Assembly: GCA_964602055.1 (NCBI GenBank)
Contig: CAZRPU010000003.1
Span: forward strand, 30,439 to 94,438
Length of the DNA: 64,000 nucleotides
Source of the DNA: an uncultured Ignavibacteriaceae bacterium
GTDB taxonomy: Bacteria > Bacteroidota > Ignavibacteria > UBA10030
Direction: 5' to 3'
The notes beneath the pieces were generated by a model, which was given only the letters and a program-made list of their open reading frames with translations, was not told the origin of the DNA and made no database searches. A program made the position numbers and the translations under genes. Positions within the stretch are counted from its first letter, which is position 1. Each line of letters opens with the position of its first letter. Of the stretch, positions 1 to 38,476 are shown one piece after another.

Positions 1-448
1 CGGTTTCCATCTGAAGATGAGCAGGCATTTCCAGTGATTCCTCCGCGGGCTGATCCGAGGGCTGTTCGGGCGCAGTCTCTTGTACGGCTTCTGGTGCCGC
101 TTCTTGTGGCGCCTCTGCCGCCGGCGGCGCAGAGAAATCCCCTAGAGGTGCTGGTGCGGCATCTCCGACAGCTTCGCGGAAACGGTCGACAACGAGGCTG
201 AGTTCCTCAACTGTATGATCCCCCTTTGCAGCGTCGGCTTCAATGCGCTCAGAGAGCCACATCAGGGACATCGCAAATTCCCCCATGCCGTGAACCCGAT
301 AGAGCGATCGCAGTTCCCCTTCGTAATCCTCCGCATCCATGAGCTTCTCCCTGATCTTTGCGAAAGTCAACCGATGCTCATCCGACGCGATATGCCCTTC
401 AGAAACGCTTTCCATGAGCGTTGCAATATACCGCTGGGCTCTTGTCAT
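1..448 (-). CDS. hypothetical protein, N-terminal ~149 aa only (gene runs off the left edge); helical acidic N-domain then Pro/Ala/Glu-rich linker
   Basis: Own reverse-strand translation: ATG at 448..446, then MTRAQRYIATLMESVSEGHIASDEHRLTFAKIREKLMDAEDYEGELRSLYRVHGMGEF...APEAVQETAPEQPSDQPAEESLEMPAHLQMET. The frame is open to position 1. The ATG overlaps the alr stop (ATGA, 445-448). It is absent from the ORF track because it is truncated. Confidence 0.6.
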   Translation of the reverse strand, partial: MTRAQRYIATLMESVSEGHIASDEHRLTFAKIREKLMDAEDYEGELRSLYRVHGMGEFAMSLMWLSERIEADAAKGDHTVEELSLVVDRFREAVGDAAPAPLGDFSAPPAAEAPQEAAPEAVQETAPEQPSDQPAEESLEMPAHLQMET

Positions 449-20219: not shown

Positions 20220-20269
20220 CGGGGCTCCTTGCGAAGTTTGAGAGAGGAACGGGGGAATGTACTCCCTCA

Positions 20270-20298
20270 AATATAGAATGATTTCGTTATCAGAACAA
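20270..20298 (-). promoter_or_regulatory. candidate promoter for the GDH pair (TTGTTC-17 nt-TATATT)
   Basis: Minus-strand read TTGTTC TGATAACGAAATCATTC TATATT, about 50 nt upstream of ATG 20219. Confidence 0.35.
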
Positions 20299-20422
20299 GA
20301 AATGGACCAAAAAAAAGGGCAAAAAAACGCTGAAAGCTCAAGTTTCGGGCTGATTCCATTCTGGAAATAGGAATCACGCCTTCTTTCTTCCAGAGTTCGG
20401 AATGAAGAGAGGAAGACGCGAC

Positions 20423-20950: not shown

Positions 20951-20972
20951 GATCCGTCCTTTCATAAGTATT

Positions 20973-22898: not shown

Positions 22899-22923
22899 GA
22901 TCGCTCCATCGAAGTACCTGAAA

Positions 22924-22960
22924 TGGAAAAAGCTCGGGCCTGCGGAAAGGGACCAGAGCT
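22924..22960 (-). terminator. candidate attenuator/terminator hairpin in the riboswitch expression platform
   Basis: Minus strand AGCTCTGGTCC...GGCCCGAGCT (imperfect stem of about 9 bp) followed by TTTTTCC. It lies between the aptamer and the btuB SD. Confidence 0.4.
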
Positions 22961-23016
22961 TCAACGGCAATCAACGAACCGGATGCGCACCTTCCCGCGA
23001 AGGCTTCACAACGTGG

Positions 23017-25549: not shown

Positions 25550-26425
25550 TTAACGTGACGCGGGCTCCATCCGGAAAATGCCTACGCGGCTTGGAGAGAC
25601 GATGAGGAGGCGATCTTTCCACATCGCCACATCCTGCAAGGGAGCGAGAGAATATTCCGAGAGAATTTCCGACGCTGCCATCGCCCATCGTACTGATCCC
25701 TTCGAATCGAACAGATGGAGAGTGTCATTGGCAACAACCATAATACCCCTGCGGCCCACCGCCATGCCCTTTGCGCCCGTGAATGTTCCCCGGCCGATGG
25801 AGCTCAGAAAATTCCCTGCGTAGTCGAATTGCGCTATGCGGTCGGGCTCGAGCACAAGAACCTTGTCATCTTCCGAAACGGCCACTTCGAGTGGACGCTG
25901 GAGCCTGCCCTCACCTGCTTCAAGGGAGCCAAAAGAGCGGACAAACCCCGACCGGCTGTCGAATTGGACGACTCTGAGATTCTCTCCATCGAGAACGAAA
26001 AGATCTCCTTGTTTCGACAGAGCGAGGCCGAGAGGGTAGCCAAACTGTGCGGAGGAAATTGAAGTATCGCGGGTCGATAACGCTGAAAGAAAGACAAGAT
26101 TGCGGTCGTACCGGACAATCCGGTGGTTCCCGTAGTCTGAAACGTAGATTGTCAGCCCATCCGTAGCGACCCCCGTGGGCCGATCGAGAGTGGTGGCGTC
26201 CCAGCCGTACCCACCCACAAGACGCTGATGAGTGCCCCGCTCTGAAAACAGCGAGAGCGTATGTCTCGCATCGTCAAGAACGTAGATTGTGCCGCTCGCG
26301 TCAACCGCTATCCTGGCTGCGTTGCCAAACGATCCAAAAAAACTCTCCTCAACAAAAAGGGTATCCTGAGCCTGGAGTCCCGGTACGCAAAGAAGTAAAC
26401 CGGCTATTGCAGCAAGCGCGACCAA
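25550..26425 (-). CDS. NHL-repeat (six-bladed beta-propeller) protein, secreted
   Basis: 291 aa with repeated ...G.iYV.D..NHRI/..v.vfd... units (for example IYVSDYGNHRIVRYD, LFVLDGENLRVVQFD). Hydrophobic N-terminus. The TTG start overlaps the upstream gene by 22 nt. Confidence 0.7.
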   Translation of the reverse strand: MVALAAIAGLLLCVPGLQAQDTLFVEESFFGSFGNAARIAVDASGTIYVLDDARHTLSLFSERGTHQRLVGGYGWDATTLDRPTGVATDGLTIYVSDYGNHRIVRYDRNLVFLSALSTRDTSISSAQFGYPLGLALSKQGDLFVLDGENLRVVQFDSRSGFVRSFGSLEAGEGRLQRPLEVAVSEDDKVLVLEPDRIAQFDYAGNFLSSIGRGTFTGAKGMAVGRRGIMVVANDTLHLFDSKGSVRWAMAASEILSEYSLAPLQDVAMWKDRLLIVSPSRVGIFRMEPASR

Positions 26426-27774
26426 TCGTCGTCCCAGAGTTCTCCCCGTTTCGTTGAATGGACAAGGGTGTATTCCCCGAAACCGGTGCGATCGACAAAG
26501 ATGAACGAAACGCCGTTTTCGATGTTAAAGTACCGCCATATCTCATACGGTCGAGCAACCTCCGTGGTGCTGGGATATCTCTCCGTGTCATCCGGCTCTC
26601 CGTACAGAATTGCCACGCGACCCCTGTCTGTCGACCATCCCGGGCGATTGAAAGCACGAAAACGTTCGTTTGCCTTGCGGGCCCGGTCGAGATATTCCGT
26701 GCGGGTAATCCCGGGACGACCACCCTTTCCTTTTGCCACTTCGGCCCAAAACGCAGAGAGATATTCCCTCCGCCCGTCCGGCGATGTGATCTGAGCAAAG
26801 GTCTTGATTTCATCTTTCGTCGCGTGGTACTGCGCCATTCTGAATTCCTCTGCGAGTTCATCAGGGGTCAGGCCGCCGAGCTCCGATTCAACCAGTTTTG
26901 CATCCGAAAGAACAGGCGCGGCAACCCGGGGATTATACACATAGAACACTTTTTCCGTTTTGGTAATCGGTTCGGAAGACGGGCTCAGGATCAGAGCCTG
27001 AAAGTAGTATTTACCGGACTTGAGTTTCACAATGTTGGTGGTCCCGATTTCCACCGAGTTTCTTATCTTGTACTTCCGCTTCTTGGCATTTTCCTGGATG
27101 GGTTTCCGCGCGTCATCGAGAATCAGCGTACGCAGCACGTATTCCTTATCCGGATCAATGTCGTAGAGCTCAAAATAATGAAAAATGACGGGATGGTTGC
27201 TCGTACCGAAGAGAAGGGTGGGATTCGGGACGACGTCAAACGAGTTCTTATAGAAAAGGTTCTCCTTGTCGGACGACTCACGAATATTTGAGCACAGTTC
27301 GAGGTCGCTCGCTGCAAGTCCCGGCCCCAATGGCTCCATGGTGCTCGAGATCCTGACGGTATCGGATCGGGAAGGATCGAGCGAATCGGACGCCGTGATC
27401 TGGAAAACATACTCTCCAAAAGGAAGCGAGTATCCCATTTGCGAGATCAGTGTCGAGCCGGCTGCGATCCCGGCGCTGTCTCTTGCGCTCAGGGGAATCC
27501 TTCGGCGATCTCGCCTGACCACTTCTCCCGTTTGCTTGCTCGAAATTTCGGTGTTGAGGAAAATAGTTCCTTCAAACGCATCTCCAACAGGCCGGTAAGT
27601 CGTCAGGTGAGGAAAAACAGCAAAATAGAATTCCACATACGTGGTGCTGTCACTGTGGCGAAACCTCGCATAGTCGAAGTTCATGGTGAACGGGGAGCTC
27701 GTCAACAGGATCTGTGAAGACGCCGTGGACGCGAAGATGCCAGCAACGAATATGAACATTCCAATCTTTTTCAT
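26404..27774 (-). CDS. GWxTD domain-containing protein, secreted
   Basis: 456 aa with signal peptide MKKIGMFIFVAGIFASTASSQ. The C-terminal region contains ...FNRPGWSTDRGRVAILYGEPDD..., the name-giving GWxTD motif. Confidence 0.75.
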   Translation of the reverse strand: MKKIGMFIFVAGIFASTASSQILLTSSPFTMNFDYARFRHSDSTTYVEFYFAVFPHLTTYRPVGDAFEGTIFLNTEISSKQTGEVVRRDRRRIPLSARDSAGIAAGSTLISQMGYSLPFGEYVFQITASDSLDPSRSDTVRISSTMEPLGPGLAASDLELCSNIRESSDKENLFYKNSFDVVPNPTLLFGTSNHPVIFHYFELYDIDPDKEYVLRTLILDDARKPIQENAKKRKYKIRNSVEIGTTNIVKLKSGKYYFQALILSPSSEPITKTEKVFYVYNPRVAAPVLSDAKLVESELGGLTPDELAEEFRMAQYHATKDEIKTFAQITSPDGRREYLSAFWAEVAKGKGGRPGITRTEYLDRARKANERFRAFNRPGWSTDRGRVAILYGEPDDTERYPSTTEVARPYEIWRYFNIENGVSFIFVDRTGFGEYTLVHSTKRGELWDDDWSRLLQ

Positions 27775-27788
27775 GAAGTCCTCAGGCG

Positions 27789-30137
27789 TTATTCTCTATT
27801 GCTGATGATATTGGCGAACAATCGTAGTACTCCCGGATGCAAGTTCATCATTTGATGCTTTAAATCCAAATCAACATACGTGATCCTCCCTTTTCCCGTT
27901 TTCTCGGTAACAATCATCGGGTATCCGGTTTCTGCCTGCCGAAGAACCACTTCGACACTTCCACTCTCTGGAACGGTCACCCGGTGATATGCCCGAAAGA
28001 AGAGCCATGAGTCCCATAATGAACTATCAACAGCATTGGGAAAGCGAAAAAGGCGGTTCGCATCATTGAATGTTGCCTCCGTTGCAGCTCCAAATTCATG
28101 CGTCCGTTCCAGTTGAACCCCCGAAAGAAGGGGATTAGCATTCCAGTCATCCTCCTCTTGCCTCAGAATGATCACATGCCCCCCTCGAGAGGCAAACGAG
28201 CGGATTTCAGAGCGTGTTGTTCCATCAACCCTCAGGAGGGAAAGGGAACGCTCGTCAACCACCAAGGCACCTATCGGCTGCGTTGCGATGCTCCCCGGCG
28301 AGACTACCGAAGCTTGCGCGCCAATGTCCCTCAGCGCATGAACCGTTGTTCCAAACGGGAATGGCGTAACAATACTGATCGAATCTCGCCTCCCGACGGT
28401 GACCGGAAAACTCCTCACCGCGACATTCATCACATGCACAGATCCGATGGAGAGCGGAATGATCATCGAAGTATCCTTCAGCGCCTGCTTCCAATGAAGC
28501 TTCAGTGTATCTGTAAAGGAGGAGCCCTTCGTCGACGCCCGAAAGTTACTTCCCTCTCCTTCGACCAAGTCGCTCTCAATGCGTATCCTGTCTGCGACAC
28601 CGTCATAGGTGTTATTCGTAAACCGAACTATGACCTCAGCACCTTCATCCGCTTTCACCATCGGCGTAAGGATATCAAGAGTGTGCCTTGGCGAAAAAAG
28701 CAATGGAATGACTGTCCGCACAGCAAAACTCTCTTCCCGAGTGGCTCCCCGATGGAGGATGAAGAAGGAAAAATCATACCGGGGTGAAGTGCGTTCCAAA
28801 CCAAAGAGGTCGGCTGGAAGGTGATAGTCGGGCTTCTCAGGCGATACGATTCTATAGGCAACTCCCGTTCGAAGAGGAAGAAGACGCTCCCGAGCCTCGT
28901 CGATAATCCAATCATCTTCAATAGAAGGGAACAGAATCTCCAGCCTTCCCTTCAGAGGCGGTCCACTGACGGAGTCAATGGTGAGATGAGCTAGCTGCCT
29001 TGGTGAAAGAACTGTATGCTCAATCGAAAAATGCACTTGAACATCGAGAAGAAGGTTCCTCAATTGCTCCAATGACCTCTTCCACGAAATAAGATGCTTT
29101 CTTTGGCGCGGCGTCGGCCGAAGAGGCTGTGAAAATCGGCCGTCGACAGAATCTATCAACGAAACCACCCCCTTCAACATCTTCATCCTTGAGGACCGAA
29201 ACTTTGCCGAACTTCCCACGTTAGCGACAAGTTCGGAGCTCAAGCGCGCGAGAGCCGCGTGGATTTGATCCAGCGGCTTCCCCGGCGCAGAACCAAGTCC
29301 CTGATCCAGCATCTTCACGGTAGAAGCCTTTGGCAGCGAGCCATACAGCAGCTCGTACCGAAGAGGGTTCGATCGCCTCCAGACGGATTGCTGATGAGCC
29401 AAGGAGGGATATCGCTCAATTGCTTCCGCTGCCCGCTTGCGGGCAAGCAACGCCAATGGACCTGTTACCTTGGAATAGTCCAGACTGATACCACCCCGTT
29501 TCACTTCGGCGAACACACGCCTCACATCCCAGCGCTCATGAGTCCCCCGCGGGAGCCGACCCTCACGATTCACACCTGACATGAGTGAGTCTCTCACTTC
29601 GAGAACAAGAGAAGCGAGAGCATCCCGGAGAGGGCTTTTTCCCTTCACTCGGGGATCGCCGGCAATAACGATAATATCCGGCTTGACCTCAAGGACGAGT
29701 TTCTCCAATGTGGCAATAAGTGACTCTTTGGACCAACGTTCCCACACATCCGACTCGGATGCAGAGGCACCCGGATCTTCAAGATTCAGAAACCGCACTT
29801 CCCCTTCCAGCACAGAGCTTGCCTGATAGGCCTCTTCACGGAGTGTCGCAGCGAGCTGGCTCGGATATTGGTTCCTCACATCACTGTCGCCGGATTCACC
29901 ATTGGTGCAAAATACCGAAACTACCTTTGCGCCGCGCACGGAGCGAAGCATGGCCAGAGTTGTGAGATCCTCGAATCCCGGCTGGAGAGCAAGATTCATG
30001 ACGGTCAGGCTGTTCGGCAGGTGAGTTGCAACTTCCCTCAACTGCACAGGAACAGAGCTCTGGGACACCAAACGGCTGAGTGGAAGAAGGATAATAAGGG
30101 AAAAAATGGCGAAGAAGAGAAAAAACCGAAACTTCAT
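27789..30137 (-). CDS. large secreted protein with N-terminal LmbE/PIG-L-like fold (metal-binding motif degenerate) and C-terminal GATase1/ThuA-like region
   Basis: ATG 30137 (MKFRFFLFFAIFSLIILLPLS) is preceded by AAGGAAG. TVMNLALQPGFEDLT...VVSVFCTNGESGD...KPDIIVIAGDP parallels the LmbE pattern AHPDDE...TDGExG...PDvv, but with the His/Asp positions replaced. The C-terminus has GGHVIILRQEEDDW.... The assignment is from memory of large LmbE-family proteins in Bacteroidota. Confidence 0.5.
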   Translation of the reverse strand: MKFRFFLFFAIFSLIILLPLSRLVSQSSVPVQLREVATHLPNSLTVMNLALQPGFEDLTTLAMLRSVRGAKVVSVFCTNGESGDSDVRNQYPSQLAATLREEAYQASSVLEGEVRFLNLEDPGASASESDVWERWSKESLIATLEKLVLEVKPDIIVIAGDPRVKGKSPLRDALASLVLEVRDSLMSGVNREGRLPRGTHERWDVRRVFAEVKRGGISLDYSKVTGPLALLARKRAAEAIERYPSLAHQQSVWRRSNPLRYELLYGSLPKASTVKMLDQGLGSAPGKPLDQIHAALARLSSELVANVGSSAKFRSSRMKMLKGVVSLIDSVDGRFSQPLRPTPRQRKHLISWKRSLEQLRNLLLDVQVHFSIEHTVLSPRQLAHLTIDSVSGPPLKGRLEILFPSIEDDWIIDEARERLLPLRTGVAYRIVSPEKPDYHLPADLFGLERTSPRYDFSFFILHRGATREESFAVRTVIPLLFSPRHTLDILTPMVKADEGAEVIVRFTNNTYDGVADRIRIESDLVEGEGSNFRASTKGSSFTDTLKLHWKQALKDTSMIIPLSIGSVHVMNVAVRSFPVTVGRRDSISIVTPFPFGTTVHALRDIGAQASVVSPGSIATQPIGALVVDERSLSLLRVDGTTRSEIRSFASRGGHVIILRQEEDDWNANPLLSGVQLERTHEFGAATEATFNDANRLFRFPNAVDSSLWDSWLFFRAYHRVTVPESGSVEVVLRQAETGYPMIVTEKTGKGRITYVDLDLKHQMMNLHPGVLRLFANIISNRE

Positions 30138-30169
30138 GATTGCTTCCTTACACAAGAGGTGGGGCGGAA

Positions 30170-30209
30170 TAAGCAAAAGAAAAGGCTGCCTTTTGTGGAA
30201 GGCAGCCTT
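30170..30209 (-). terminator. strong intrinsic terminator after porV-like gene
   Basis: Minus strand AAGGCTGCCTT-CCACAA-AAGGCAGCCTT (11-bp perfect stem) followed by TTCTTTTGCTT. Confidence 0.8.
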
Positions 30210-30237
30210 CTCCATCTGCAGCCAAACACGCTACATC

Positions 30238-31311
30238 TTAGAAGCCAAACTTCACGGCGATGACTGAGTTCCCGTCAAAGAACTGGACCGTTCTGTAGGC
30301 AAAATCCACGGTCACATCGATGCCGCTTGTTGCATAACGGACACCGAGGCCAAACGACGGGCCGAAGATATTTTCATCTTCGCTCTTATCGGAATCAGCT
30401 CCGAGGAGCTTTGCCTGAGGAACGAAATTGGTGCCAACGCGGCCAAACAGGGTCAACGATTGGAGCCCATAGCTCAGCTCGCCGCCAATTCGGAATTCAT
30501 CCACGTACAGATTGTTGTTCGCAAAGGATCCACCAACTGTGTAATTGATATTCTCCCTGATACTCGACATATAAGAGAGCCCAATTTCGACAGTGGAGGG
30601 AAGTTCGAACGCAGCCGCGATCGTGCTATACTTCTGCTCGGGTCTGCGGCCTTCCGAGGAAGACGCGTCTCTGAGCAACCCGGAACCTTCGAACTGCATC
30701 TGGGGGCCGATGTTCTTCACCGCAACACCGATCTGCAGTCCATTGATGCCGGCAAGGCCCGAATATTGCACTCCGAAATCAAGCGCAAAACCCGATGAGT
30801 TGACGCGGTCGATCTGTTCCGACACCAGCTTGAGAGATCCACCGACAGAAATCGCATCCGTCAACGCGCGGCCGTAGGAAAGGCCGATTGTCACGTACGT
30901 CGGTGAGAAGATCCGGCCCGAACGGCCCTCGGGATCATCATCGGTGGTCAACGCAATGTCGCCGAAGCCGACGGACTTTACGCTGAAAGCGACCGTACCA
31001 AAATCACCGAACTGAGATCCAACAGCCCCGAAGGCGACATCAACGTCGCCAATCCAGGTAAGACTTGAGAACATTGCTTCTGTCGATGAGCGAAGCCTTC
31101 CAAGCCCGGCCGGATTCCAGTAGATCGATTCCAAGCCGGTGGAGTTTGAAATGGTGGAGCCACCCATGGCAAAATCGCGGGCTCCTGTGGGAATCAGGAG
31201 CTCTGTTGCCGCAGCGGTCCCAATGCGTTTGTTTTGCGCAACGGTCTGCGGAACCACCATGAGCACCACGCTCACAACAAGAGCAGCGGCGATCAGTTTT
31301 GTTTTCATCAT
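30238..31311 (-). CDS. porV: PorV/PorQ-family outer-membrane beta-barrel protein (T9SS-associated)
   Basis: 357 aa with a signal peptide. GTAAATELLIPTGARDFAMGGSTISNSTGLESIYWNPAGLG matches the PorV/LptO N-terminal pattern as I remember it. It has alternating beta-strand character and a C-terminal aromatic (..AVKFGF). SD AAGGAG. Confidence 0.72.
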   Translation of the reverse strand: MMKTKLIAAALVVSVVLMVVPQTVAQNKRIGTAAATELLIPTGARDFAMGGSTISNSTGLESIYWNPAGLGRLRSSTEAMFSSLTWIGDVDVAFGAVGSQFGDFGTVAFSVKSVGFGDIALTTDDDPEGRSGRIFSPTYVTIGLSYGRALTDAISVGGSLKLVSEQIDRVNSSGFALDFGVQYSGLAGINGLQIGVAVKNIGPQMQFEGSGLLRDASSSEGRRPEQKYSTIAAAFELPSTVEIGLSYMSSIRENINYTVGGSFANNNLYVDEFRIGGELSYGLQSLTLFGRVGTNFVPQAKLLGADSDKSEDENIFGPSFGLGVRYATSGIDVTVDFAYRTVQFFDGNSVIAVKFGF

Positions 31312-31344
31312 ATTTCTCCTTCAACCTTTGGTTGTGTGATCCCA

Positions 31345-31369
31345 GCGTGCGGCCACGTGTGCCGCACGC
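31345..31369 (-). other. GC-rich 9-bp hairpin in the cargo-porV intergenic spacer (no U-tract)
   Basis: GCGTGCGGC-(7 nt)-GCCGCACGC is a perfect palindromic stem. It lies 19 nt after the upstream stop and 33 nt before the porV ATG. Confidence 0.5.
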
Positions 31370-31388
31370 CGGTGGCAATCAGGGTCTT

Positions 31389-34300
31389 CTAGAAAACGTC
31401 GAGTACTTCCTGTTCCATGATGACAGCGACCTTAAGAACTTTGGAGGTTCCAAGCTCAGGCATATCAACGTGGACAATATAGATACCGCTCGCAACCGGG
31501 AAGTTGTACTGGTTCGTGAGATTCCAGCGCATGAACTGGCCCGGAGTCTGAACGGGATCCTTCACCAACGTTTTCACCAGTTGCCCCGCCAGATTGAAGA
31601 TTCTGATGGTCGCACGATCTGGCAAGAAATTAAATGTTACGAACCGGTTAAATCTATTCGTTTCTGCAGGATTGAATCCATAATAAGGATTCGGGAACAC
31701 GCCCACCTTCTGAACATCGGCCTTCGCTGTAGCGGTGTTGAAGGCGACAGGCGCCGGAGCCGTGAACGAGAAGGTCTCTGTGGCCGGAACTGAAGGATTG
31801 GAAATCTTCACACGCGTGACATCTCCCGTCCGCCACTTGGGCCTGTCAGCCGAGGTAACCCCAGGTGCGAATATCCATGTCCCTTTGGGATTATCCCGCG
31901 GAACGGCCGTAACACCGGCAGCAGTCGCATCCGCGGTGTAAGGTGTTGAAACTGCTCCGATATACGCCCGACCGTTTCCAGCCAATCGGATGTATAAGGG
32001 TGTTCCGCCGCTACCCCATGGAGAGGCTCCGTCAGCATTTCGATCGCGGACCACTGCGTTAATCTGCCTGTTCCGCCCCGTCCCTGCGTCGACCTCCCAG
32101 AGTTCGAAAGGCACTCTCAAACGAATAATCGTCGCCGCATTCGAACTGGTTACGGTTGCTATCGACCCTCCGGAAACAATCACGGTGTCTTCCGCGAATG
32201 TCCCGTTTGGTCGTGTTGCACGAACACCCGTGAACCTGAATTCGAGGTCGGTCACAAGATCCGTCTGAGTCGTCGTATTCGTCGTTTGCGGCAAGAGAGA
32301 CGAATAAGAGTAGCCGAAACCGCTATAGGACAACAGACCGTCACCGACATTGGCCGGGTCTTGTGCGAGTGAATAGTCTGCCGGATTGCTCCAGACGGGC
32401 TGCCCAATCTTCGCCTGTAGACCATCGAAGATGGGGTACGTTTCGTCCTGACTGTAGTTCTGCTGGAATGTAAACAGCGTTGTCGATCCTCTGTTGATAT
32501 AGTATGGGTAGTTCGTCACATCCATCTGAGCCTGGACCGTGTCAACGCTTGTAATAATCGTCGCATACACATTTCCCGCTGTCAGAGCCTGCACAAGGGC
32601 AGCGGTCAGCGGTTGAGTGCCATCAGTGGTAGTCCACTTTCCGCTGGCATGGGCATTACCGAGCGTAACCGTGTAGCCGATATTCTTGAAGGCACCGGCC
32701 GTCCCGGTTGTATCGAAGTAGATTCCTGTAATCGGGCCAGCAAGGTTTGAAATGTTGTTCACTGTGATGTCGTATGACAGCGCGGTTGCTGCTGCATTCA
32801 AGGTGCCATCAATAGTGAAGTTCCAAGTGGCCGGACTGTTAACGGGATCTTCTGTGAACCCATGAAACCTGTCTGGTTGACCGGACCAACCAATCGTATA
32901 GGATTGACCCGTGACTTGAGAGGGATCGACTACTGCTACCTCTATGGGTACATCACCAATTCCATTCGTATGGCTAATCGTCAGCCCGCTACCCGACTTT
33001 GTGGAATATACGACTCCGGGTTGCGGAGACTGCGGACGAAGAGCGAAGATTGTCGGTGAAGACTCCAAAGTGGCCGGCAGATATCCCGTTGTAGTGCGGG
33101 AATAAGCCGTAACTGCGTAGTAGTATTCCTGCCCGTTATAGAGCCTGTCGATATCCCTCACATAATCTCGTTTGAGAGAGACATATCGTTTCAGGCCCGA
33201 GTTCGACCCAAACTGCACGGGCTTGAAAAGAATGACCCCTGATTGGTCGGCCTGTTCGTCTGTGATAACCGCAGGGTCCGTCGGAAGGTCGAATGTCGCT
33301 ATACGCACCCAATCAGAAATCGGTGAGCCAGCGCTGGGGAGTTGGTAAACATTGTACCCCTCAAATACATAAGCACCGGGGTTGCTGACCGTCGTTTCGG
33401 TCTGTTGAACCCGATTGACATTGGAGCCCCATTCCAGAACGATTTCCCCGTCAAGTTCGGAATACTTCACCGCGGGACTTGCGGGGGACTGTGGCACAAC
33501 GAATAGGTCGTTGAACGTGTTTTGCACGAACCGGTCGTTGAAGCGCATGACCGCGACGCTCGAGATTCTATCCGCGCCTATGCCAGCTACGACGCCCATG
33601 ACAACTTCCTGCGTGTCACCAGGCACCATCGAGAAAGGTCCCGAGGTCATGATCAGTCGACGATCACCGGGTATAAAGGACCATGCAGTTCCCTGGCCGT
33701 CAAGATGTCCAGTCCCGGCAACAGGGTCACCGGAAAGACTGAACCGCGTGTTAGGCATTCCCGGGGGCAAAGGATACAGGACGTCTGGCCCGTCAAGGGG
33801 AACAAATCCACGAAACATCTTCCACCAGCGGAGTGTGCCGGTAGCGTACGGAGATGGCGGATCAGAGTATGCCGCGCTTGCCGCGAACCATGTGAACGCG
33901 GACATCGGAAGATTCTTGTAGCCGTAAATCTTCTTGAGGCCAAAAACTCCTGAGTCGCCAGGAGCTACAACAAGCGGCCCCTGGAGGAAGTCATACCCCG
34001 CCGAGGGAGGAGCGAGACTTACTTTTTGATATTCATTATCGACGGGATAGCCGTTGTAGATGAAACCAAGACTCAATGTGGAATCAGATCCAATAACGTC
34101 ATCACCTGCATTACCAAGGTCGGGGTCGGACCATTGTGCAACGTACATGCTGTCGATGTAAAACGTTCCTTTGGTCCCTGCACCATCCACATCGACACCG
34201 CCCTTATTGATGAACTTGTAGCGCTTGAAGTAGAGATTTCCAAGGGCATCGGTTCTCTTGTACCCCCATGTAGTAGCCTGTATTTCCAAACCAATAGGCT

Positions 34301-35147
34301 CTGACCCATTCAAAGCGACCGTTGTTGCGCGTGCAAGGTCATTGAACACGCACCAGAGCACTTGATCTGCCGGTGAATTGGGATCCGCTCCGGCGACGCC
34401 TGGCTCATCTCTCCCCTGTGTAATAAGGCTGTCGTGTGTGAACAATGTCCCTACGGCCGGATCATAATTGAACGCCGGCGGTGGATCGTACACCCCGTTG
34501 CCATTACGATCGATAAACGGGGCACCTCTGGGAACCACGAGGGCCCAATCCTTCCAGTCTTTGTCATAAAAGTCCAGCACCTGGGCCAATTCACTCGCTG
34601 TAACTTCGGCTACGGGTTTTTCGAACGACTCCGCGGCGTCGCGAATCAGCTCTGATTCCGGGATCACTTTGTAGTCTCTTCTAATTCGAAACGTACGAGT
34701 GAGAACATCATTTTGGTCTTGTCCTGTTCCTGAGGTACCACTCCCATTGATCCATCCATTCACCGTACCTGAACGGTAGTGGGATCCACCCATACGGATC
34801 GTTTGCGAAAAAGGACCCGGGATGGTTTTGGCTGCATCACGGAACACCTTGCCGCCCCAAACGAGGCCGTCTTCGTAGATGAGCCACTTCGTTCCTCGGG
34901 GATAATACATACCATTATCTCCGTCGGGAGAGTGATTGGAGAGTCCATCGTTCTTCATCCACGTGCTGAGGTTATTGATATTCAGCACCTTGTACTTCTC
35001 CTCATTTGAAAGCGCGCTTGTCTTCGAAAGCTGCTGCTTTCCCTTTTTGTCTCCACCCTCTCCTTCGCCGGCAATCGTCGCGACAGAGAAAATCGCTGTC
35101 AGACCAAGGGAGAGTATGATGAAACGCATCAATCTGTTAGTTGGCAT
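31389..35147 (-). CDS. large (~1252 aa) secreted protein with T9SS-type C-terminal sorting domain; function unknown
   Basis: ATG 35147 (MPTNRLMRFIILSLGLTAIFSVATIAG) is preceded by GAAGGAG. The C-terminal ~100 aa VGVFPNPYYGF...ATIRIFNLAGQLVKTLV...WNLTNQYNFPVASGIYIVHVDM...SKVLKVAVI resemble Por_Secre_tail / FlgD-Ig-like sorting domains. I recognised no catalytic motif. Confidence 0.7.
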   Translation of the reverse strand: MPTNRLMRFIILSLGLTAIFSVATIAGEGEGGDKKGKQQLSKTSALSNEEKYKVLNINNLSTWMKNDGLSNHSPDGDNGMYYPRGTKWLIYEDGLVWGGKVFRDAAKTIPGPFSQTIRMGGSHYRSGTVNGWINGSGTSGTGQDQNDVLTRTFRIRRDYKVIPESELIRDAAESFEKPVAEVTASELAQVLDFYDKDWKDWALVVPRGAPFIDRNGNGVYDPPPAFNYDPAVGTLFTHDSLITQGRDEPGVAGADPNSPADQVLWCVFNDLARATTVALNGSEPIGLEIQATTWGYKRTDALGNLYFKRYKFINKGGVDVDGAGTKGTFYIDSMYVAQWSDPDLGNAGDDVIGSDSTLSLGFIYNGYPVDNEYQKVSLAPPSAGYDFLQGPLVVAPGDSGVFGLKKIYGYKNLPMSAFTWFAASAAYSDPPSPYATGTLRWWKMFRGFVPLDGPDVLYPLPPGMPNTRFSLSGDPVAGTGHLDGQGTAWSFIPGDRRLIMTSGPFSMVPGDTQEVVMGVVAGIGADRISSVAVMRFNDRFVQNTFNDLFVVPQSPASPAVKYSELDGEIVLEWGSNVNRVQQTETTVSNPGAYVFEGYNVYQLPSAGSPISDWVRIATFDLPTDPAVITDEQADQSGVILFKPVQFGSNSGLKRYVSLKRDYVRDIDRLYNGQEYYYAVTAYSRTTTGYLPATLESSPTIFALRPQSPQPGVVYSTKSGSGLTISHTNGIGDVPIEVAVVDPSQVTGQSYTIGWSGQPDRFHGFTEDPVNSPATWNFTIDGTLNAAATALSYDITVNNISNLAGPITGIYFDTTGTAGAFKNIGYTVTLGNAHASGKWTTTDGTQPLTAALVQALTAGNVYATIITSVDTVQAQMDVTNYPYYINRGSTTLFTFQQNYSQDETYPIFDGLQAKIGQPVWSNPADYSLAQDPANVGDGLLSYSGFGYSYSSLLPQTTNTTTQTDLVTDLEFRFTGVRATRPNGTFAEDTVIVSGGSIATVTSSNAATIIRLRVPFELWEVDAGTGRNRQINAVVRDRNADGASPWGSGGTPLYIRLAGNGRAYIGAVSTPYTADATAAGVTAVPRDNPKGTWIFAPGVTSADRPKWRTGDVTRVKISNPSVPATETFSFTAPAPVAFNTATAKADVQKVGVFPNPYYGFNPAETNRFNRFVTFNFLPDRATIRIFNLAGQLVKTLVKDPVQTPGQFMRWNLTNQYNFPVASGIYIVHVDMPELGTSKVLKVAVIMEQEVLDVF

Positions 35148-35215
35148 ACCAAACTCCTTCATTTGATCTTATGCTTGATGCTCGGAGGTTCTCTTCAAAT
35201 CTGCCGAGCGTACGC

Positions 35216-38200
35216 TTAGTACTCAATCCGGATTCCAGCGCGAATCTGTCGTGGTGTACCATACACGTCGACGCCCGCCTGATTATACATGGCCCAGCGG
35301 TTGTCAAGGTTAATGGCCCTGTAGAAAGGCGCATACAACGGGTCGCCTGCAATCATGGTGCTCGCAGCAGGATTTCTCAACCATCCATCATCCTGGGCGG
35401 TACCAGTCGTCGGATACACGTTGATAATGTGCTTCGTATTCAGAAGATTCAGCACGTTGACGTACGCTTCCACCGTAAACCCAGGAAGCTGATAGAAGAC
35501 CTTGTTGAACACGAGGTCAATGTTGAACACCCAGGGAGTGGTGGAGTTGTTAATCGGTTCAATCGGGAACCTGTTCCGCACATCGCCCAACATGCGAACA
35601 CCGATGTTCCATGGGGTCGTTTGACCACTGTAGTTCTTGTCGGACAACTTCGTATAGGGATGTCCGCTGTTGAACGTCAAGAGGAGGTTTAGTCCCATAC
35701 CTTCGAGCACCGGACCTCCATCTCCTTTCGCAAAGCGGTAGTCAATCATCACTGTGCCGCGATGCGCCTGGTTCTGGTCAAGAATGCTTGTGAAATTCGG
35801 ATAGCGTGCGAGAGCATCGCTCACGACAACCCGGGAAGAATTGATCGAAGATCCGGTTCCGCGGGCATCTGAAAGAGTGTAGTTCACTTTCGCGGCCAGC
35901 CTTTCAGTTCTTCGAACTTCAAGAGTCAGCTCGAGACCTTTTGTCGTTCCAAAGTCGTCATTTACCCACCCGGCGAACAGCAAGCTGCCTGACGAAGAGT
36001 AAATACGGCCCTGGAGGAGCTGGTCGCGCAGGTCATTGTAGAATCCGGTGACGGTCAAAGCGAAGTTATCCGCCATCAATTGCCGGATACCGACCTCATA
36101 TTTTGTCGTCCTTTCCGGGCTTGCCGTGAATCCTGCGAACTGGCCAAAATACCCATACGGTGATCGCGTGTCAAGCCCTGTCACGTTGCTCAGGTTCACC
36201 GAGCTTGTATAGACCTGGTTCAGAGACACCGGTTGAATATATTTGCCGTATTGAGCAAAGAACACCGTTCTGTCTGTCACAGGGAACGAGAAGTTGATCC
36301 TGGGCAAAAGGTACGCAAACGGTTCCCGCTCGACGAGGGTTGATTCATCGAGAAGGTCAAGGTTCGCATTGTAGTTCGTTGGATTCTCGAGGTTATCCGG
36401 CATCTTCGCTTTCGTATCGATGTACTCGTAGCGGAGACCAAAGTTCAGGATGAGGTCTTTGAACTCGAACTTATTCTGGACATAGGCCGATGCGGAAAGA
36501 GGCTTGAAAGGAGCATCAGGCCCATCGTCCACTTGCTTTCCATCAACATCATAACCGAAGAAACTCATTCCGCCGCGACGATGCAGGTTCACACGACGGT
36601 CGAGCTTGATGCTGTCGATCTGGGCCGCTGTGAGGCCTGGAGCGCTCAGATTATAGCGAGGGGTTTTTCCATCGATTCCGTTCTCATACTCAAGATACGA
36701 ACGGATATTCCCCACGGACCAGTTTCTCATGGTCCAGGTATCAAGCGTACCACCAACTCTGAGCTCCCAGTTTGCATTTACCTGGGATGTAAAATCGACG
36801 GTTGCTCCGATTCCAAATTGCTTGTTCTTGCTGTAGCTGTTGATAGGCTCATTGGGGTCGGCAATCGAGAAGCTGTTAATGACAAGATATCTCGATGGAC
36901 CTTGGTACTTGGCTTCCCATCCTCTGCCTTGGTTCGAGGAACTGTCTACATATGCCTTCCAATTGCTTTTGAACTCTTCGTCATATGCGACGAACTTTCT
37001 CTGTTGAGCAGAGATTCCGACTTCGTAGTAAGTCGTTGGATTCAGGATGTGCGTGAGACGGGCATTGACGAATCCAATCTCGGTCTTACGCTGCTGATTC
37101 TTCCCTTGGTTAAAGTAGAAGGTCAGAGCATTCGGCCATTCACCGCCCAAAGGAGCATACGACAAAGAGTAGCTCCCCGACAATGCGATCTTAAAGGGAT
37201 TAAAATCAGCAGTCGCTTTCCCCTGGAAGTCAAGGTTGTCAGTATAATTGTTGTAGAGATAGTTCTCCTGGAACTCAATGGGGCCCGGGAGCGGTGTGCC
37301 GGCTGCTTTGGCACCGTTATCCAGGTTGGTCACAAGGTTCTCAAACTTGAAGGGGGTGATCCAGATATTCTGGTCGTTCCGCCGGAACTCCGATTTTCCA
37401 GCAACGAAAAACCGGATCTGCGAAAATGAAGGAACCGGACCACTTATGGTACCGACGATATTGCGGAATCCCGATGAGGAGGTGCCCAGGAATTTCTTCC
37501 CCGGACTTGCAAAGTCGTCGGAGCTGATATCCAACGACGCTTTGTAGGTTGTGCCTCCGGAGCGCATCGTGGACCTTAAGAGTCCTCCGCCTGCTCCACC
37601 GAGCTCTGCGGTGTATCCGCCGGTCTGGAGCTGAACCTCTTCAAGGGCCTCTTGGATCAAGGAGACGTTCTCGCTGTTGAAATACGGGTTCGTTGCGTTC
37701 GCACCATCGACGAAGAAGCCGATGTTGTTCGAGCGGCTTCCGCGAACATACAACACACCATTCTGTTGAACAACTCCCGCTTCCAACGCGACGATGTTCT
37801 GAATACCTCGATACGGGATGTAGCGAATTTCTTCCTGCGTATTCACACGAACGGTGTTCGTCGTATTCCTCTGAATGAGGGGACGTTGAGCAACGACCTC
37901 CACGGCTTCAACCTGGATTGCAGTGCTCGAGAGAGCAAAGTCCTGCGTCGTTGTGATGTTCGATGAAACGCGGATGTTGGAAATCGTGTAAGGAGAGTAT
38001 CCTATGTACGACCCCTTCACGGTGTAGATTCCGGGAGGAACACCGAGGATGATATATTCACCGTTGAGGTCGGTTGACGCGCCAAGGCTCGTCCCTTCGA
38101 TGGTGACGTTGGCGCCTATGAGAGGTTCACCGGACTCCTTGTCCGTTACTCTTCCACGGAGTTTCCCATCCTGTGCCAGCAACAGCACTGGGAGAAGGAA

Positions 38201-38236
38201 AAGGGCGGTGAAAGCCACGAGTAGCTTGCGAAGCAT
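35216..38236 (-). CDS. TonB-dependent receptor with N-terminal carboxypeptidase-regulatory-like domain
   Basis: 1006 aa with a signal peptide. GKLRGRVTDKESGEPLIGANVTIEGTSLGASTDLNGEYIILGVPPGIYTV is a CarboxypepD_reg domain. It also has a plug-like LYVRGSRSNNIGFFVDGA and the C-terminal ...RAGIRIEY. A perfect SD GAAGGAGGT lies before ATG 38236. Confidence 0.85.
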   Translation of the reverse strand: MLRKLLVAFTALFLLPVLLLAQDGKLRGRVTDKESGEPLIGANVTIEGTSLGASTDLNGEYIILGVPPGIYTVKGSYIGYSPYTISNIRVSSNITTTQDFALSSTAIQVEAVEVVAQRPLIQRNTTNTVRVNTQEEIRYIPYRGIQNIVALEAGVVQQNGVLYVRGSRSNNIGFFVDGANATNPYFNSENVSLIQEALEEVQLQTGGYTAELGGAGGGLLRSTMRSGGTTYKASLDISSDDFASPGKKFLGTSSSGFRNIVGTISGPVPSFSQIRFFVAGKSEFRRNDQNIWITPFKFENLVTNLDNGAKAAGTPLPGPIEFQENYLYNNYTDNLDFQGKATADFNPFKIALSGSYSLSYAPLGGEWPNALTFYFNQGKNQQRKTEIGFVNARLTHILNPTTYYEVGISAQQRKFVAYDEEFKSNWKAYVDSSSNQGRGWEAKYQGPSRYLVINSFSIADPNEPINSYSKNKQFGIGATVDFTSQVNANWELRVGGTLDTWTMRNWSVGNIRSYLEYENGIDGKTPRYNLSAPGLTAAQIDSIKLDRRVNLHRRGGMSFFGYDVDGKQVDDGPDAPFKPLSASAYVQNKFEFKDLILNFGLRYEYIDTKAKMPDNLENPTNYNANLDLLDESTLVEREPFAYLLPRINFSFPVTDRTVFFAQYGKYIQPVSLNQVYTSSVNLSNVTGLDTRSPYGYFGQFAGFTASPERTTKYEVGIRQLMADNFALTVTGFYNDLRDQLLQGRIYSSSGSLLFAGWVNDDFGTTKGLELTLEVRRTERLAAKVNYTLSDARGTGSSINSSRVVVSDALARYPNFTSILDQNQAHRGTVMIDYRFAKGDGGPVLEGMGLNLLLTFNSGHPYTKLSDKNYSGQTTPWNIGVRMLGDVRNRFPIEPINNSTTPWVFNIDLVFNKVFYQLPGFTVEAYVNVLNLLNTKHIINVYPTTGTAQDDGWLRNPAASTMIAGDPLYAPFYRAINLDNRWAMYNQAGVDVYGTPRQIRAGIRIEY

Positions 38237-38447
38237 ATTCTACCTCCTTCATGATGTAGAATGTGTTTTGAATTGACTGCGGGACTGTTTACTACGGAAA
38301 CGCCGTTAAGCTAGTTGTTTCGGCGGATGAATCTGCAGGAAAGTGTTACAAGGGTTTGCGCTAGGCATCCTCTGTCAAGAGACACTTGCGCGAAATCACC
38401 TCCTTCTTGCAAAGCGTTGATTTATTGAGACTTATAATTCGTGGGAA

Positions 38448-38476
38448 AATATAGGACATGCCCCCCCATTTGTCAA
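38448..38476 (-). promoter_or_regulatory. consensus sigma70-type promoter (TTGACA-17 nt-TATATT) for the TBDR/cargo/porV unit
   Basis: Minus-strand read TTGACA AATGGGGGGGCATGTCC TATATT. It implies a 5' leader of about 205 nt before ATG 38236. Confidence 0.6.

Follow-up and report, generated by a model that had tools for sequence, protein, structure and literature searches.

A conserved operon for a TonB-dependent receptor, a large type IX sorting-domain protein and a PorV-family barrel in Ignavibacteria and related lineages

Three kinds of outer-membrane assembly offer the closest described comparisons for the locus reported here. In SusC/SusD (RagA/RagB) a transporter with a CarboxypepD_reg extension, a TonB box and a plug is encoded immediately upstream of its surface partner. 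In PorZ-PorQ and PorU-PorV a large secreted protein is retained by its type A sorting domain on the matching PorV-family barrel (PMC10202324): PorZ keeps its domain bound to PorQ, and PorU to PorV (PMC10202324; PMC11285876). In ordinary type A domains the translocon-contacting surface is poorly conserved except for one Lys (PMC10994853). In BamA-BamG-BamH and SprA-PorV a FadL/PorV-like 14-strand barrel sits on a larger barrel and holds an extracellular canopy protein (PMC12611786, PMC12578637).

The 64-kb stretch of DNA analysed here, referred to as the window, carries genes for a TonB-dependent receptor, a large secreted protein and a PorV-family barrel in this order (Table 1). The trio resembles SusC/SusD in the layout and position of the transporter gene, in the presence of several paralogous sets per genome and in its occurrence in utilisation loci (by annotation, in the Rhodothermus marinus alginate locus, PMC9530828). 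It differs in that the partner is a beta-rich T9SS sorting-domain protein and not a SusD TPR lipoprotein (it has no signal-peptide cysteine, no SusD model match and a predicted beta-rich fold), in that the sequence conservation of this partner is far above that usual for SusD, in the obligatory third gene and in a receptor score below the SusC/RagA cut-off. The order of the large-protein and barrel genes is that of porU-porV, and retention of the sorting domain on the barrel would parallel PorZ-PorQ and PorU-PorV; however, the body of the trio protein is unrelated, without PorZ beta-propellers or a PorU Cys/His peptidase, and the trio includes a TonB-dependent receptor, is found in several copies per genome and has a barrel under every equivalog cut-off. 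The likeness to BamA-BamG-BamH and SprA-PorV is architectural, an analogy in which the large barrel would be a TonB-dependent receptor and the canopy a T9SS cargo instead of a lipoprotein.

Table 1. Features of the trio locus and its downstream neighbours (window coordinates)
Feature	Position	Strand	Remarks
NHL-repeat protein with signal peptide	25550..26425	-	overlaps end of GWxTD gene by 22 nt
GWxTD-domain protein with signal peptide	26404..27774	-	14 nt after PIG-L gene
Secreted 782-aa protein, N-terminal PIG-L (GlcNAc deacetylase superfamily)	27789..30137	-	Pfam PIG-L
Intrinsic terminator closing the trio	30168..30213	-	15-pair stem 30213-30178
PorV/PorQ-family outer-membrane barrel, FadL-like, 357 aa	30238..31311	-	NF033709
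Secreted surface protein, 1252 aa	31389..35147	-	ATG behind GAAGGAG; longest ORF start 35162
Type A sorting domain, residues 1148-1243, with 9-residue tail	31392..31706	-	profile matches
Variable middle, residues 706-1140	31728..33032	-	beta-sandwich domains; 27-35% identity
FN3-like domain, residues 556-705	33033..33482	-	63% identity
Head domain, residues 53-555	33483..34991	-	beta-supersandwich with helical insert; model pLDDT 92.2
TonB-dependent receptor, 1006 aa	35216..38236	-	Pfam CarboxypepD_reg 67.5 bits, Plug 28.4 bits
5' leader, about 205 nt	38237..38447	-	between promoter and receptor gene
Sigma-70-type promoter TTGACA-17-TATATT	38448..38476	-	11/12 consensus match

An earlier note on this DNA had described a promoter, three minus-strand genes with strong Shine-Dalgarno sequences and a terminator, and all of these were recovered at the positions it gave. 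The promoter was the top-ranked of 11 promoter-like sites in the region; as 8.1 such sites were expected from shuffled sequences, their number alone is not significant. Its position is conserved, as 32 of 66 related loci have TTGACA-16..18-TAnnnT 5' of the start codon of the receptor gene, usually as TTGACAAA...TATATT and in most cases 164-327 nt from it. An SD-like AAGAAGGAGGTGA within the leader (38408-38396) is not followed by a start codon, and the genuine ribosome-binding site can base-pair with a pyrimidine stretch of the leader (TTCTAC here, UCUCC in relatives); RNAalifold returned this as the sole pairing in the leader, without covariation. A riboswitch was rejected, as Rfam gave no match at E<=5 beyond noise and the folding energy did not differ from that of shuffled sequences. 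The three genes are preceded by strong ribosome-binding sites (GAAGGAGG, GAAGGAG and GAAGGAG, respectively), and the terminator core is an 11-bp perfect AAGGCTGCCTT/AAGGCAGCCTT followed by TTTGCTTATT. No terminator-like site was found in the internal spacers of 68 nt and 77 nt, as the earlier note had also reported. The same pattern was repeated in relatives, where a strong hairpin with a T-run was located 3' of the PorV-like gene in 41 of 61 loci, after the receptor gene in four of 80 and after the large gene in four of 66. By codon-adaptation index (reference: ribosomal and EF genes) the trio was not separable from neighbouring genes, and no claim on its expression level is therefore made.

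The order of the genes was compared across 78 loci in the genomes of related Ignavibacteria, KSB1 and Marinimicrobia. The receptor gene was upstream of the large-protein gene in 65 of 66 loci and the PorV-like gene downstream of it in 58 of 59, an order that extends to Rhodothermota and bears out what the earlier note had expected of relatives; chance adjacency was rejected on this synteny. Several genomes hold two or three trios, the copies of which have diverged, and tandem duplication of the whole trio was seen at L004/L017 and at L047, each trio with its own PorV-like copy. One variant (L080) has the order receptor, large protein, large protein, receptor, without a PorV-like gene. In at least four FCB lineages the trio genes form a single conserved operon closed by a terminator, and they duplicate together. 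The trio proteins are 56-64% identical across phyla, about the conservation of the adjacent SerA. Proteins that capture nutrients are rarely conserved to this degree, which would suit a housekeeping role in the envelope as well. The locus adjoins ribosomal-protein operons.

The trio is bounded by its promoter and terminator, as first proposed, but the conserved neighbourhood runs on downstream through the PIG-L, GWxTD and NHL genes. The PIG-L gene starts 41 nt past the terminator stem and is the next gene after the trio in 38 of 45 loci, and a GWxTD gene follows it in 24 of 45. Beyond its PIG-L domain the protein is uncharacterised, with ~35% identity among orthologues; a homologue search gave four matches, few because the method relies on shared exact words. 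PDB sequence searches with the PIG-L and GWxTD proteins returned no relatives.

The receptor had been called a CarboxypepD_reg-type TonB-dependent receptor, and both Pfam domains were confirmed in the window protein, with Plug (PF07715) above its cut-off of 23.9 bits. A signal peptide, the CarboxypepD_reg N-terminal extension, a TonB-box-like VEAVEVVAQRP, the plug and a large barrel ending ...IRIEY follow one another. At motif level, the TonB box, which lies between extension and plug, has the consensus AVEIVAERPLIQRNTTNT, and A116, P119 and Q122-T128 are invariant in this region. CarboxypepD_reg was detected in 31 of 31 orthologues, Plug in 28 and TonB_dep_Rec_b-barrel in 19 (best E 7.5e-29); no barrel model (PF00593 or related) was detected in the window receptor at E<=0.01. 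The family profile matched the RagA N-terminal extension and the PhuR barrel in the PDB (E 7.6e-6), while the SusC/RagA subfamily model (TIGR04056) gave 60.2 bits against a cut-off of 368, with the match confined to residues 25-148.

The CarboxypepD_reg N-terminal domain also occurs in Oar-type transporters, and Oar exports PopC in Myxococcus. The receptor-type barrel might accordingly secrete the large protein, with the PorV-like barrel receiving it, independently of the T9SS translocon; the shared domain would fit such an export role, as would the result that no core T9SS gene was seen within the 64-kb window. This is most improbable, as no Oar-type barrel model matched the receptor or its orthologues, the cargo ends in a genuine type A sorting domain that keeps the conserved Lys, and a folded 130-kDa multidomain cargo is implausible for a plugged 22-strand barrel. 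Moreover, SprA translocons are reported in these phyla (PMC12611786), and among FCB phyla, Chlorobiota excepted, SprA and type IX systems have been described (PMC12611786, PMC11285876); the presence of a T9SS in the genome of the window is taken from these reports.

The sorting domain proposed for the C-terminus of the large protein was upheld at the level of the family (40 of 40 members), although the window protein itself scored 19.5 bits with Por_Secre_tail (TIGR04183 / PF18962), just under the curated cut-off of 23. Of the 40 family members tested, all matched Por_Secre_tail (E<=0.01, with 1.3e-7 as the best value) and likewise the PorZ model over its sorting-domain part, and 16 matched the PorU model (E>=1.5e-5); the last ~100 aa of the window protein matched the same part of the PorZ model at E 1e-10. 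Seven strands are predicted (model residues 1097-1190), K1239 in KVLKVAVI is invariant and the domain is closer to its counterparts in PorZ and PorU than to the generic model. At 69% identity no other region of domain size in the protein is as conserved, in contrast to the weakly conserved translocon-facing surface of ordinary type A domains (PMC10994853), and the short tail (MEQEVLDVF here, consensus IIQEQEVLDVF) reaches 72%. The resemblance does not extend to PorZ or PorU as whole proteins: their models match the sorting domain only, at 40 bits for PorZ against equivalog cut-offs of 260 (PorZ) and 420 (PorU), and in the head a supersandwich takes the place of a propeller. Across the family the large protein has no invariant Cys or His, and a PorU-like protease was rejected.

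The third protein had been assigned to the PorV/PorQ family, as opposed to the generic porins, and this assignment was sustained by NF033709 (132 bits, cut-off 90), by 29 of 29 orthologues with the same model and by its sole PDB relative, PorV (6h3i, E 5.6e-14). Every equivalog score was below its cut-off (PorQ 79.5/220, PorV2 59.8/325, PorV 56.3/250, BamG 34.8/250), and since these models were built mainly from Bacteroidota a deep orthologue could also score below; orthology with BamG was rejected on its score. The barrel is unlikely to be the sole housekeeping porV of the genome, given equivalog scores far below cut-off, the separate copy in each tandem trio and a second PorV-family gene 6 kb away at locus L032.

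The PIG-L superfamily acts on GlcNAc-glycolipids. With the gene for a large sorting-domain protein placed ahead of that for a PorV-family barrel as in porU-porV, a sorting domain closest to PorZ and PorU, such an enzyme downstream, conservation at housekeeping level and a location beside ribosomal-protein operons, the trio might be a lineage-specific counterpart of PorZ-PorQ or PorU-PorV, engaged in cargo processing, cargo attachment or glycolipid delivery, to which the receptor-type barrel is accessory. This is regarded as quite unlikely. The large protein lacks the PorU-type catalytic dyad, as it has no invariant Cys or His, its PorZ and PorU matches stop at the sorting domain, and the receptor retains a plug and a TonB-box-like strand. 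The several diverged trios per genome, the plasmid copy with peptidoglycan hydrolases described below and the same annotated order in an alginate locus are what is seen with substrate-specific systems rather than with a core machine.

The signal peptide of the large protein has no lipobox cysteine, and a PDB sequence search with this protein returned no relatives. Its AlphaFold2 model (pLDDT 85.7) gave only generic FN3/Ig chains and PorZ (5m11 among the top matches) in a whole-chain Foldseek search, and the head was therefore modelled separately. The head has a mean pairwise identity of 64% across phyla and many invariant Asp, Arg, Tyr and Trp residues. Foldseek aligned its model with sandwich domains at the N-termini of GH116, GH94 and GH65 proteins and of a dextran dextrinase (probability ~1); the predicted fold may thus resemble the sandwich domains with which glycoside hydrolases and phosphorylases bind sugars, and owing to the weak similarity (TM 0.23-0.27) this is only a lead for glycan binding. 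In the variable middle, a CHRD-like insert (residues 785-871, Pfam CHRD 25.2 bits) is confined to the subfamily of ~1250-1300 aa. The head is also found in stand-alone T9SS cargo proteins that contain BNR propellers and a canonical sorting domain and whose genes have neither a receptor gene nor a PorV-like gene in their vicinity, and head-domain relatives of other architectures pass Pfam's sorting-domain cut-off at 34-36 bits. The head is therefore an autonomous module and not obviously or simply a lid for the receptor.

A protein of ~1150-1300 aa built as a chain of beta-sandwich and FN3-like domains, expressed from a consensus promoter with strong ribosome-binding sites and a strong terminator, could also be an abundant coat protein or adhesin anchored via the PorV-like barrel, with the receptor as a pedestal or unrelated; Tannerella has type IX-secreted S-layer proteins. 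Such sequences normally diverge fast, however, and the head is highly conserved; codon usage gave no sign of exceptional expression, and the obligatory receptor with plug and TonB box and the neighbouring enzymes would be left unexplained. A surface-layer or adhesin role is accordingly held to be very unlikely.

Homologues of all three proteins were located in the same order on the R. marinus plasmid pRMAR01 (RMAR_RS14120, RMAR_RS14115 and RMAR_RS14110). In hhalign comparisons the receptor matched its homologue with probability 100 (E 6e-72), the large protein at E 4e-12 (head and FN3) and E 7e-13 (sorting domain) and the PorV-like protein at E 5e-21. The plasmid genes are separated by 5-13 nt or overlap, and genes for Amidase_2 (muramoyl-alanine amidase) and Beta-lactamase2 (beta-lactamase-fold serine hydrolase) are packed behind them. 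The two trios are 23-34% identical; in R. marinus the large protein, annotated 'hypothetical protein', has no C-terminal tail, and the genes downstream of the trio are the amidase and serine hydrolase rather than PIG-L, GWxTD and NHL. In the R. marinus alginate utilisation locus a TonB-dependent receptor, a T9SS type A sorting-domain protein and a PorV/PorQ family protein are again encoded in this order (PMC9530828), the likeness of tonB-hypA-hypB to the window trio being one of annotated product names alone. The earlier note knew of no described function for the trio, and a literature search found no function assignment either; the sole mention was the uncommented gene order in that report.

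The reading favoured here, and held with slightly better than even confidence, is that the trio forms a TonB-powered three-part uptake complex in which a surface cap is exported by the T9SS and held by its own PorV-family barrel. The sorting domain would stay uncleaved and docked on the extracellular loops of the co-encoded barrel, on the model of PorZ on PorQ and PorU on PorV, which would make the barrel a dedicated membrane anchor. The head, comprising the beta-supersandwich with the FN3-like domain, would lie over or beside the receptor, the variable middle serving as a spacer or specificity module, so that the large protein would take the role of the SusD lipoprotein; with its large barrel, FadL-like barrel and extracellular canopy, the complex would also share the layout of BamA-BamG-BamH and SprA-PorV. 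The head would capture, and possibly process, a glycan-type ligand, which the receptor would then import with TonB energy. The weakest step concerns the ligand, which might be a polymer containing GlcNAc or MurNAc, such as peptidoglycan debris, as suggested by the PIG-L-type deacetylase downstream here and the amidase and beta-lactamase-fold hydrolase behind the R. marinus trio. The earlier suggestion of a SusC/SusD-like complex is partly supported: it is favoured by the annotated trio order in the alginate locus (PMC9530828) and by the peptidoglycan-acting enzymes beside the R. marinus trio, whereas the occurrence of the head in stand-alone proteins and a neighbourhood of more than three genes speak against its simplest form.

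The genes may instead be co-regulated without forming one machine, a T9SS surface enzyme or binder being held on its own PorV-family anchor while the receptor imports the released products, with no stable contact between receptor and cap. Ordinary polysaccharide utilisation loci likewise combine secreted enzymes and transporters, and operon membership alone is no proof of contact; the autonomous head is present in stand-alone cargo, too. Separate secreted lyases are also encoded in the R. marinus alginate locus, each with a sorting domain (PMC9530828). Against this stand the near-invariant order and adjacency across phyla, the duplication of the trio as a unit, the unusual conservation of all three proteins and the distances of the head, which follow those of the receptor and not of the PorV-like protein. 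The correlation of distance matrices between head and receptor was r 0.91 (partial 0.66 given the PorV-like protein), compared with a partial of -0.04 between head and PorV-like protein, and the sorting domain gave partials of 0.31 with the PorV-like protein and 0.14 with the receptor; such mirror-tree values are confounded by shared phylogeny and are only suggestive. These data point to tighter coupling than that of ordinary locus neighbours, and simple co-regulation is considered unlikely.

More tentatively, and at somewhat less than even odds, the non-Bacteroidia FCB phyla Ignavibacteriota, KSB1, Marinimicrobia and Rhodothermota may use an unrecognised class of TonB-dependent uptake system, in which a non-lipoprotein T9SS cap keeps its sorting domain uncleaved and is thereby fixed for good to a PorV-family barrel of its own, itself docked on the transporter; the most conserved lineage, that of the window, would perhaps scavenge peptidoglycan or other GlcNAc polymers. 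If true, the T9SS would gain a structural role in building nutrient importers. One such complex would link two hallmarks of the FCB group, TonB-dependent SusC-like import and type IX secretion, would represent a second solution to capping a TonB-dependent transporter and would add to the shuttle role of PorV-family barrels that of a permanent anchor at a transporter. Utilisation loci outside Bacteroidia, where SusD-based searches miss such systems, could be better annotated, and the homologous operon of the cultured R. marinus makes the idea directly testable.

At 50% identity, the large-protein family comprises 4148 clusters at E<=1e-3 and 1199 at E<=1e-30. It is abundant in sediment, groundwater and ocean lineages without cultured models.

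The earlier note proposed that a TonB-dependent receptor, a large secreted protein and a PorV-like barrel are encoded on the minus strand of the window as one promoter-to-terminator unit. The promoter, the three open reading frames, the ribosome-binding sites and the terminator were all located as proposed (see table), and no terminator-like site was found in either internal spacer (68 and 77 nt). GAAGGAG(G) preceded the start codon of each gene; the start of the large protein was taken as the ATG behind GAAGGAG, the longest open reading frame beginning five codons earlier. The promoter was the best promoter-like site in the region, where the bare number of such sites (11 versus 8.1 expected) was not above chance; the weight rests on conservation across loci, a TTGACA-type promoter being present 5' of the receptor start codon in 32/66.

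Coordinates of the window features and of the related loci
Feature	Record	Positions	Strand	Details
rpoC, fusA, tuf, ribosomal-protein genes, secY, map, rpoA, GTPase, class V aminotransferase, serA	window	38541-63901	minus	housekeeping run
Promoter TTGACA-17-TATATT	window	38476-38448	minus	11/12 positions matched
Leader	window	38237-38447	minus	~205 nt
SD-like element of leader	window	38408-38396		
Receptor ORF	window	35216-38236	minus	1006 aa
Large-protein ORF	window	31389-35147	minus	1252 aa
PorV-like barrel ORF	window	30238-31311	minus	357 aa
Terminator	window	30213-30178	minus	15-pair stem, 11-bp perfect core, T-rich tail
PIG-L, GWxTD and NHL-repeat genes	window	25550-30137	minus	782, 456 and 291 aa; behind the trio terminator
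BtuB-like receptor, DUF6580 protein	window	20423-22970	minus	
Dehydrogenase region	window	14264-20459	minus	genes at 17337-18698 and 18804-20459
Second receptor module	L032	16785-21755		'Chlorobi bacterium CHB1' contig
Locus with two large proteins	L080	1-10448		1162 and 1168 aa
Diverged large-protein paralogue	L039	1-2579		
pRMAR01 operon	L091, NC_013502.1	8638-21117		
Head-bearing protein P0146	L088	5635-9984		without trio
Head-bearing protein P0149	L090	3295-8412		without trio
Head-bearing protein P0153	L089			without trio
Head-bearing protein P0187				without trio

A scan of one genome per species yielded 200 relatives of the large protein, and 78 loci were examined; they belong to Ignavibacteria (an Ignavibacterium album genome among them), Marinimicrobia, candidate division KSB1 and MAGs filed as unclassified 'Bacteroidota'. 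The gene order was conserved in these relatives, as the proposal required: counting only where the contig left room, the receptor gene lay directly upstream of the large gene in 65/66 loci and the PorV-like gene directly downstream in 58/59. A PIG-L gene came next in 38/45, followed by a GWxTD gene in 24/45. A strong hairpin with a T-run was found within 110 nt 3' of the PorV-like gene in 41/61 loci, versus 4/80 after the receptor gene and 4/66 after the large gene, which indicates that the three-gene, terminator-bounded unit is itself conserved. Whole-block duplications were found in tandem in L004/L017 and in L047, and several genomes carried two or three diverged trios. Pairwise identity averaged 56% among receptors and 58% among barrels, and conservation of the trio proteins was comparable to that of the adjacent serA gene. 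The trio is a single conserved operon, its three products all secreted or located in the outer membrane, and chance does not account for such conservation.

The signal peptide of the large protein is not of the lipoprotein type, and a sequence search of the PDB gave no relative. In AlphaFold2 models (pLDDT 85.7 for the whole protein, 92.2 for the head modelled separately) the head, residues 53-555, is predicted as a beta-supersandwich of ~500 residues with a helical insert, followed by an FN3-like domain, a variable run of beta-sandwiches, and a C-terminal seven-strand domain with a 9-residue tail. A CHRD-like insert occurs in the variable middle of the subfamily from the window. The head resembled sandwich domains that stand at the N-terminus of GH116, GH94 and GH65 enzymes and of a dextran dextrinase (probability near 1, TM-score only 0.23-0.27) and lacks the catalytic (alpha/alpha)6 domain of these enzymes; the modelled fold may be taken as a lead towards sugar binding, with no enzyme assignment. 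The family is large: among library representatives clustered at 50% identity, 4148 match at E<=1e-3, and 1199 of them reach E<=1e-30. Mean pairwise identity was 64% in the head, 63% in the FN3-like domain, 27-35% in the middle, 69% in the sorting domain and 72% in the tail, making the sorting domain the most conserved domain-sized region.

The type IX (T9SS) sorting domain claimed for this C-terminus held for the family, Por_Secre_tail and the sorting-domain part of the PorZ model being matched in 40/40 members, although the window protein itself scored below the cut-off (19.5 versus 23 bits). The PorU model was matched in 16/40 members. The Lys conserved in ordinary type A domains is invariant, and the domain is followed by a further conserved tail, IIQEQEVLDVF. 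Invariant Cys and His residues are absent from the family, which excludes a PorU-type peptidase.

The PorV/PorQ-family identity suggested for the 357-aa protein was borne out by the family model (132 bits, cut-off 90), which matched 29/29 orthologues, and PorV was its sole PDB relative. Its scores with the PorV, PorQ, PorV2 and BamG models were far below all four equivalog cut-offs. That the gene is simply the housekeeping porV is countered by indirect evidence, namely these sub-threshold scores, the presence of a barrel gene in each duplicated trio, and the finding of another PorV-family gene in L032. There, a second module directly follows the trio and PIG-L gene; it consists of an 855-aa TonB-dependent receptor of heme type that carries a CarboxypepD_reg extension, a pair of small paralogous lipoproteins (LSC lipobox) and a PorV/PorQ-family barrel (183 bits), so PorV-family barrels also go with receptors that have lipoprotein partners.

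The receptor begins with a signal peptide and an N-terminal extension of the CarboxypepD_reg type; the TonB-box-like strand VEAVEVVAQRP and a plug come next, and the long C-terminal region ends ...IRIEY. The plug was present in 28/31 orthologues; the barrel model matched 19/31 and gave no match in the window receptor itself. SusC/RagA family membership was rejected (60 bits versus a curated cut-off of 368, the match being confined to the N-terminus).

The analogy to SusC/SusD drawn in the earlier note stood in part: SusC/SusD is the system closest in working to the whole trio, but the large protein failed every SusD criterion and the receptor fell under the SusC cut-off. Likewise, PorZ-PorQ and PorU-PorV are closest in working to the pair of large protein and barrel, yet this pair failed the membership tests for all four proteins. 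In the full-text literature searched, in which journal coverage was partial, no function was assigned to the trio, the large-protein family or the GWxTD proteins, and GWxTD went unmentioned. Given this likeness with failed membership and the absence of an assigned function, the trio was taken as a variant combining both kinds: somewhat more probably than otherwise, it is a TonB-dependent transporter whose surface partner keeps its sorting domain and is anchored through it to a PorV-family barrel. Such a conserved cross-phylum fusion of type IX secretion and Sus-like transport would probably surprise specialists in either.

The mechanism that we favour, at slightly better than even odds, is a cap exported by the type IX system and held by its own PorV-family barrel. 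The large protein would be exported, its sorting domain would be kept and bound to the co-encoded barrel, the conserved head would act as a capture device at the receptor, and the receptor would import the ligand. No core type IX genes were found within the 64-kb window; presence of the system in these phyla is taken from the literature (PMC12611786, PMC11285876). The argument for anchoring is drawn from the conservation of the sorting domain, the resemblance to PorZ and PorU, and the extra tail. In ordinary type A domains a single Lys is conserved on a translocon-contacting surface that otherwise shows little conservation (PMC10994853). PorZ and PorU are documented cases of a sorting domain retained and bound to PorQ or PorV (PMC10202324; PMC11285876), and cognate PorV-like barrels have been suggested to shield such domains from cleavage (PMC10202324). 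Contact of the head with the receptor is a weaker step than anchoring. Across 29 trios, and with all correlations inflated by shared phylogeny, head distances correlated with those of the receptor (r 0.91; partial 0.66 given the barrel) versus a partial correlation of -0.04 with the barrel, while sorting-domain distances gave partial correlations of 0.31 with the barrel versus 0.14 with the receptor. Architectural precedent for a barrel-bound barrel exists in the Bacteroidota BAM, where BamG, a FadL-like barrel, is bound to the BamA barrel and holds extracellular BamH, and in PorV bound to the SprA barrel (PMC12611786, PMC12578637).

Several observations argue against the favoured mechanism, the lack of core type IX genes in the window among them. 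L080 encodes a receptor, two large proteins and a second receptor, with no PorV-like gene. The head also occurs outside the trio, in 1400-1970-aa proteins fused to BNR/Sortilin-type beta-propellers or Ig-like domains (P0146, P0187, P0149 and P0153), with a canonical Por_Secre_tail in all except P0153. The three with readable neighbourhoods are stand-alone genes with no adjoining receptor or PorV-like gene; the P0153 contig carries no other gene. The head is thus an autonomous functional module, present in stand-alone type IX cargo, from which the trio-type proteins differ in having the FN3-like domain, a special sorting domain and the tail. A diverged paralogue in L039 has a sorting domain of the same style with another tail (IMPQKQIQRY), and the PorV-like gene behind it shows only 36% identity.

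A tblastn search of plasmids identified Rhodothermus marinus DSM 4252 plasmid pRMAR01, on which the gene order is an FG-GAP protein with a sorting domain, RMAR_RS14120 (TonB-dependent receptor), RMAR_RS14115 (1132-aa 'hypothetical protein', the large-protein homologue), RMAR_RS14110 (PorV/PorQ family protein), an Amidase_2 protein (N-acetylmuramoyl-L-alanine amidase) and a Beta-lactamase2-family serine hydrolase. The genes are separated by 5-13 nt, apart from a pair that overlaps by 29 nt. By alignment to the window trio all three core proteins are homologous: the receptor with hhalign probability 100 (E 6e-72, 29% identity over 839 columns), the large protein with E 4e-12 over head and FN3 and E 7e-13 over the sorting domain, and the barrel with 27% identity (E 5e-21). 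This operon offers a cultured organism, with genetic tools available, in which the system is directly testable. Within a few kb of it there is a type I-U CRISPR-Cas locus. Independently, the alginate utilisation locus of R. marinus (PMC9530828, Figure 2; hypA and hypB in GenBank ON640824) resembles the window trio in the order of its annotated products, namely TonB-dependent receptor, T9SS type A sorting-domain protein and PorV/PorQ family protein; hypA and hypB are treated there as hypothetical genes with no proposed role.

The modelled head fold points loosely to a glycan ligand. With low confidence, this may be a GlcNAc/MurNAc-containing polymer, e.g. peptidoglycan debris, which would fit the neighbouring genes in the window and in R. 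marinus; the alginate locus suggests that other family members serve other glycans. In the window these neighbours are the PIG-L, GWxTD and NHL-repeat genes (14-nt spacer, 22-nt overlap), all with signal peptides, a block that follows the trio in Ignavibacteria, KSB1 and Marinimicrobia. The PIG-L superfamily is one of GlcNAc deacetylases; in the secreted PIG-L protein the ~600 residues past the deacetylase domain had no family or PDB match. Also counting against the favoured mechanism, a housekeeping envelope role for the trio would suit its cross-phylum conservation and the ribosomal-protein operons alongside. The trio lies directly downstream of the housekeeping run, and the aminotransferase-serA-trio linkage is kept in many Ignavibacteria loci, not in KSB1.

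The layout of the operon leader is conserved among Ignavibacteria-type loci (also compared in L085, L059, L014, L069, L074, L068, L020, L087, L084, L024, L058 and L010). An SD-like AAGAAGGAGGTGA that no start codon follows lies ~30-55 nt past the likely transcription start; after it come hairpins whose stem sequences vary between loci, a UUUCCUC-type motif, and UCUCCAC 10-15 nt ahead of the real ribosome-binding site. UCUCCAC is able to pair with that site, five pairs being kept in 11-13 of 13 sequences, without covariation. No Rfam family matched the leader and its folding energy was not above that of shuffles. The leader could be a translational switch or a STAB-SD-type 5' stabiliser.

Further along the window minus strand, a BtuB-like TonB-dependent receptor (TonB-B12 model 217 bits, below cut-off) and the DUF6580 membrane protein that comes after it probably form a pair for corrinoid uptake, unrelated to the trio. 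Tandem glutamate/leucine-type dehydrogenase genes are adjoined by a gene for a 1014-aa protein with response-regulator receiver and PPDK_N (PEP-utilising, ATP-binding) domains.
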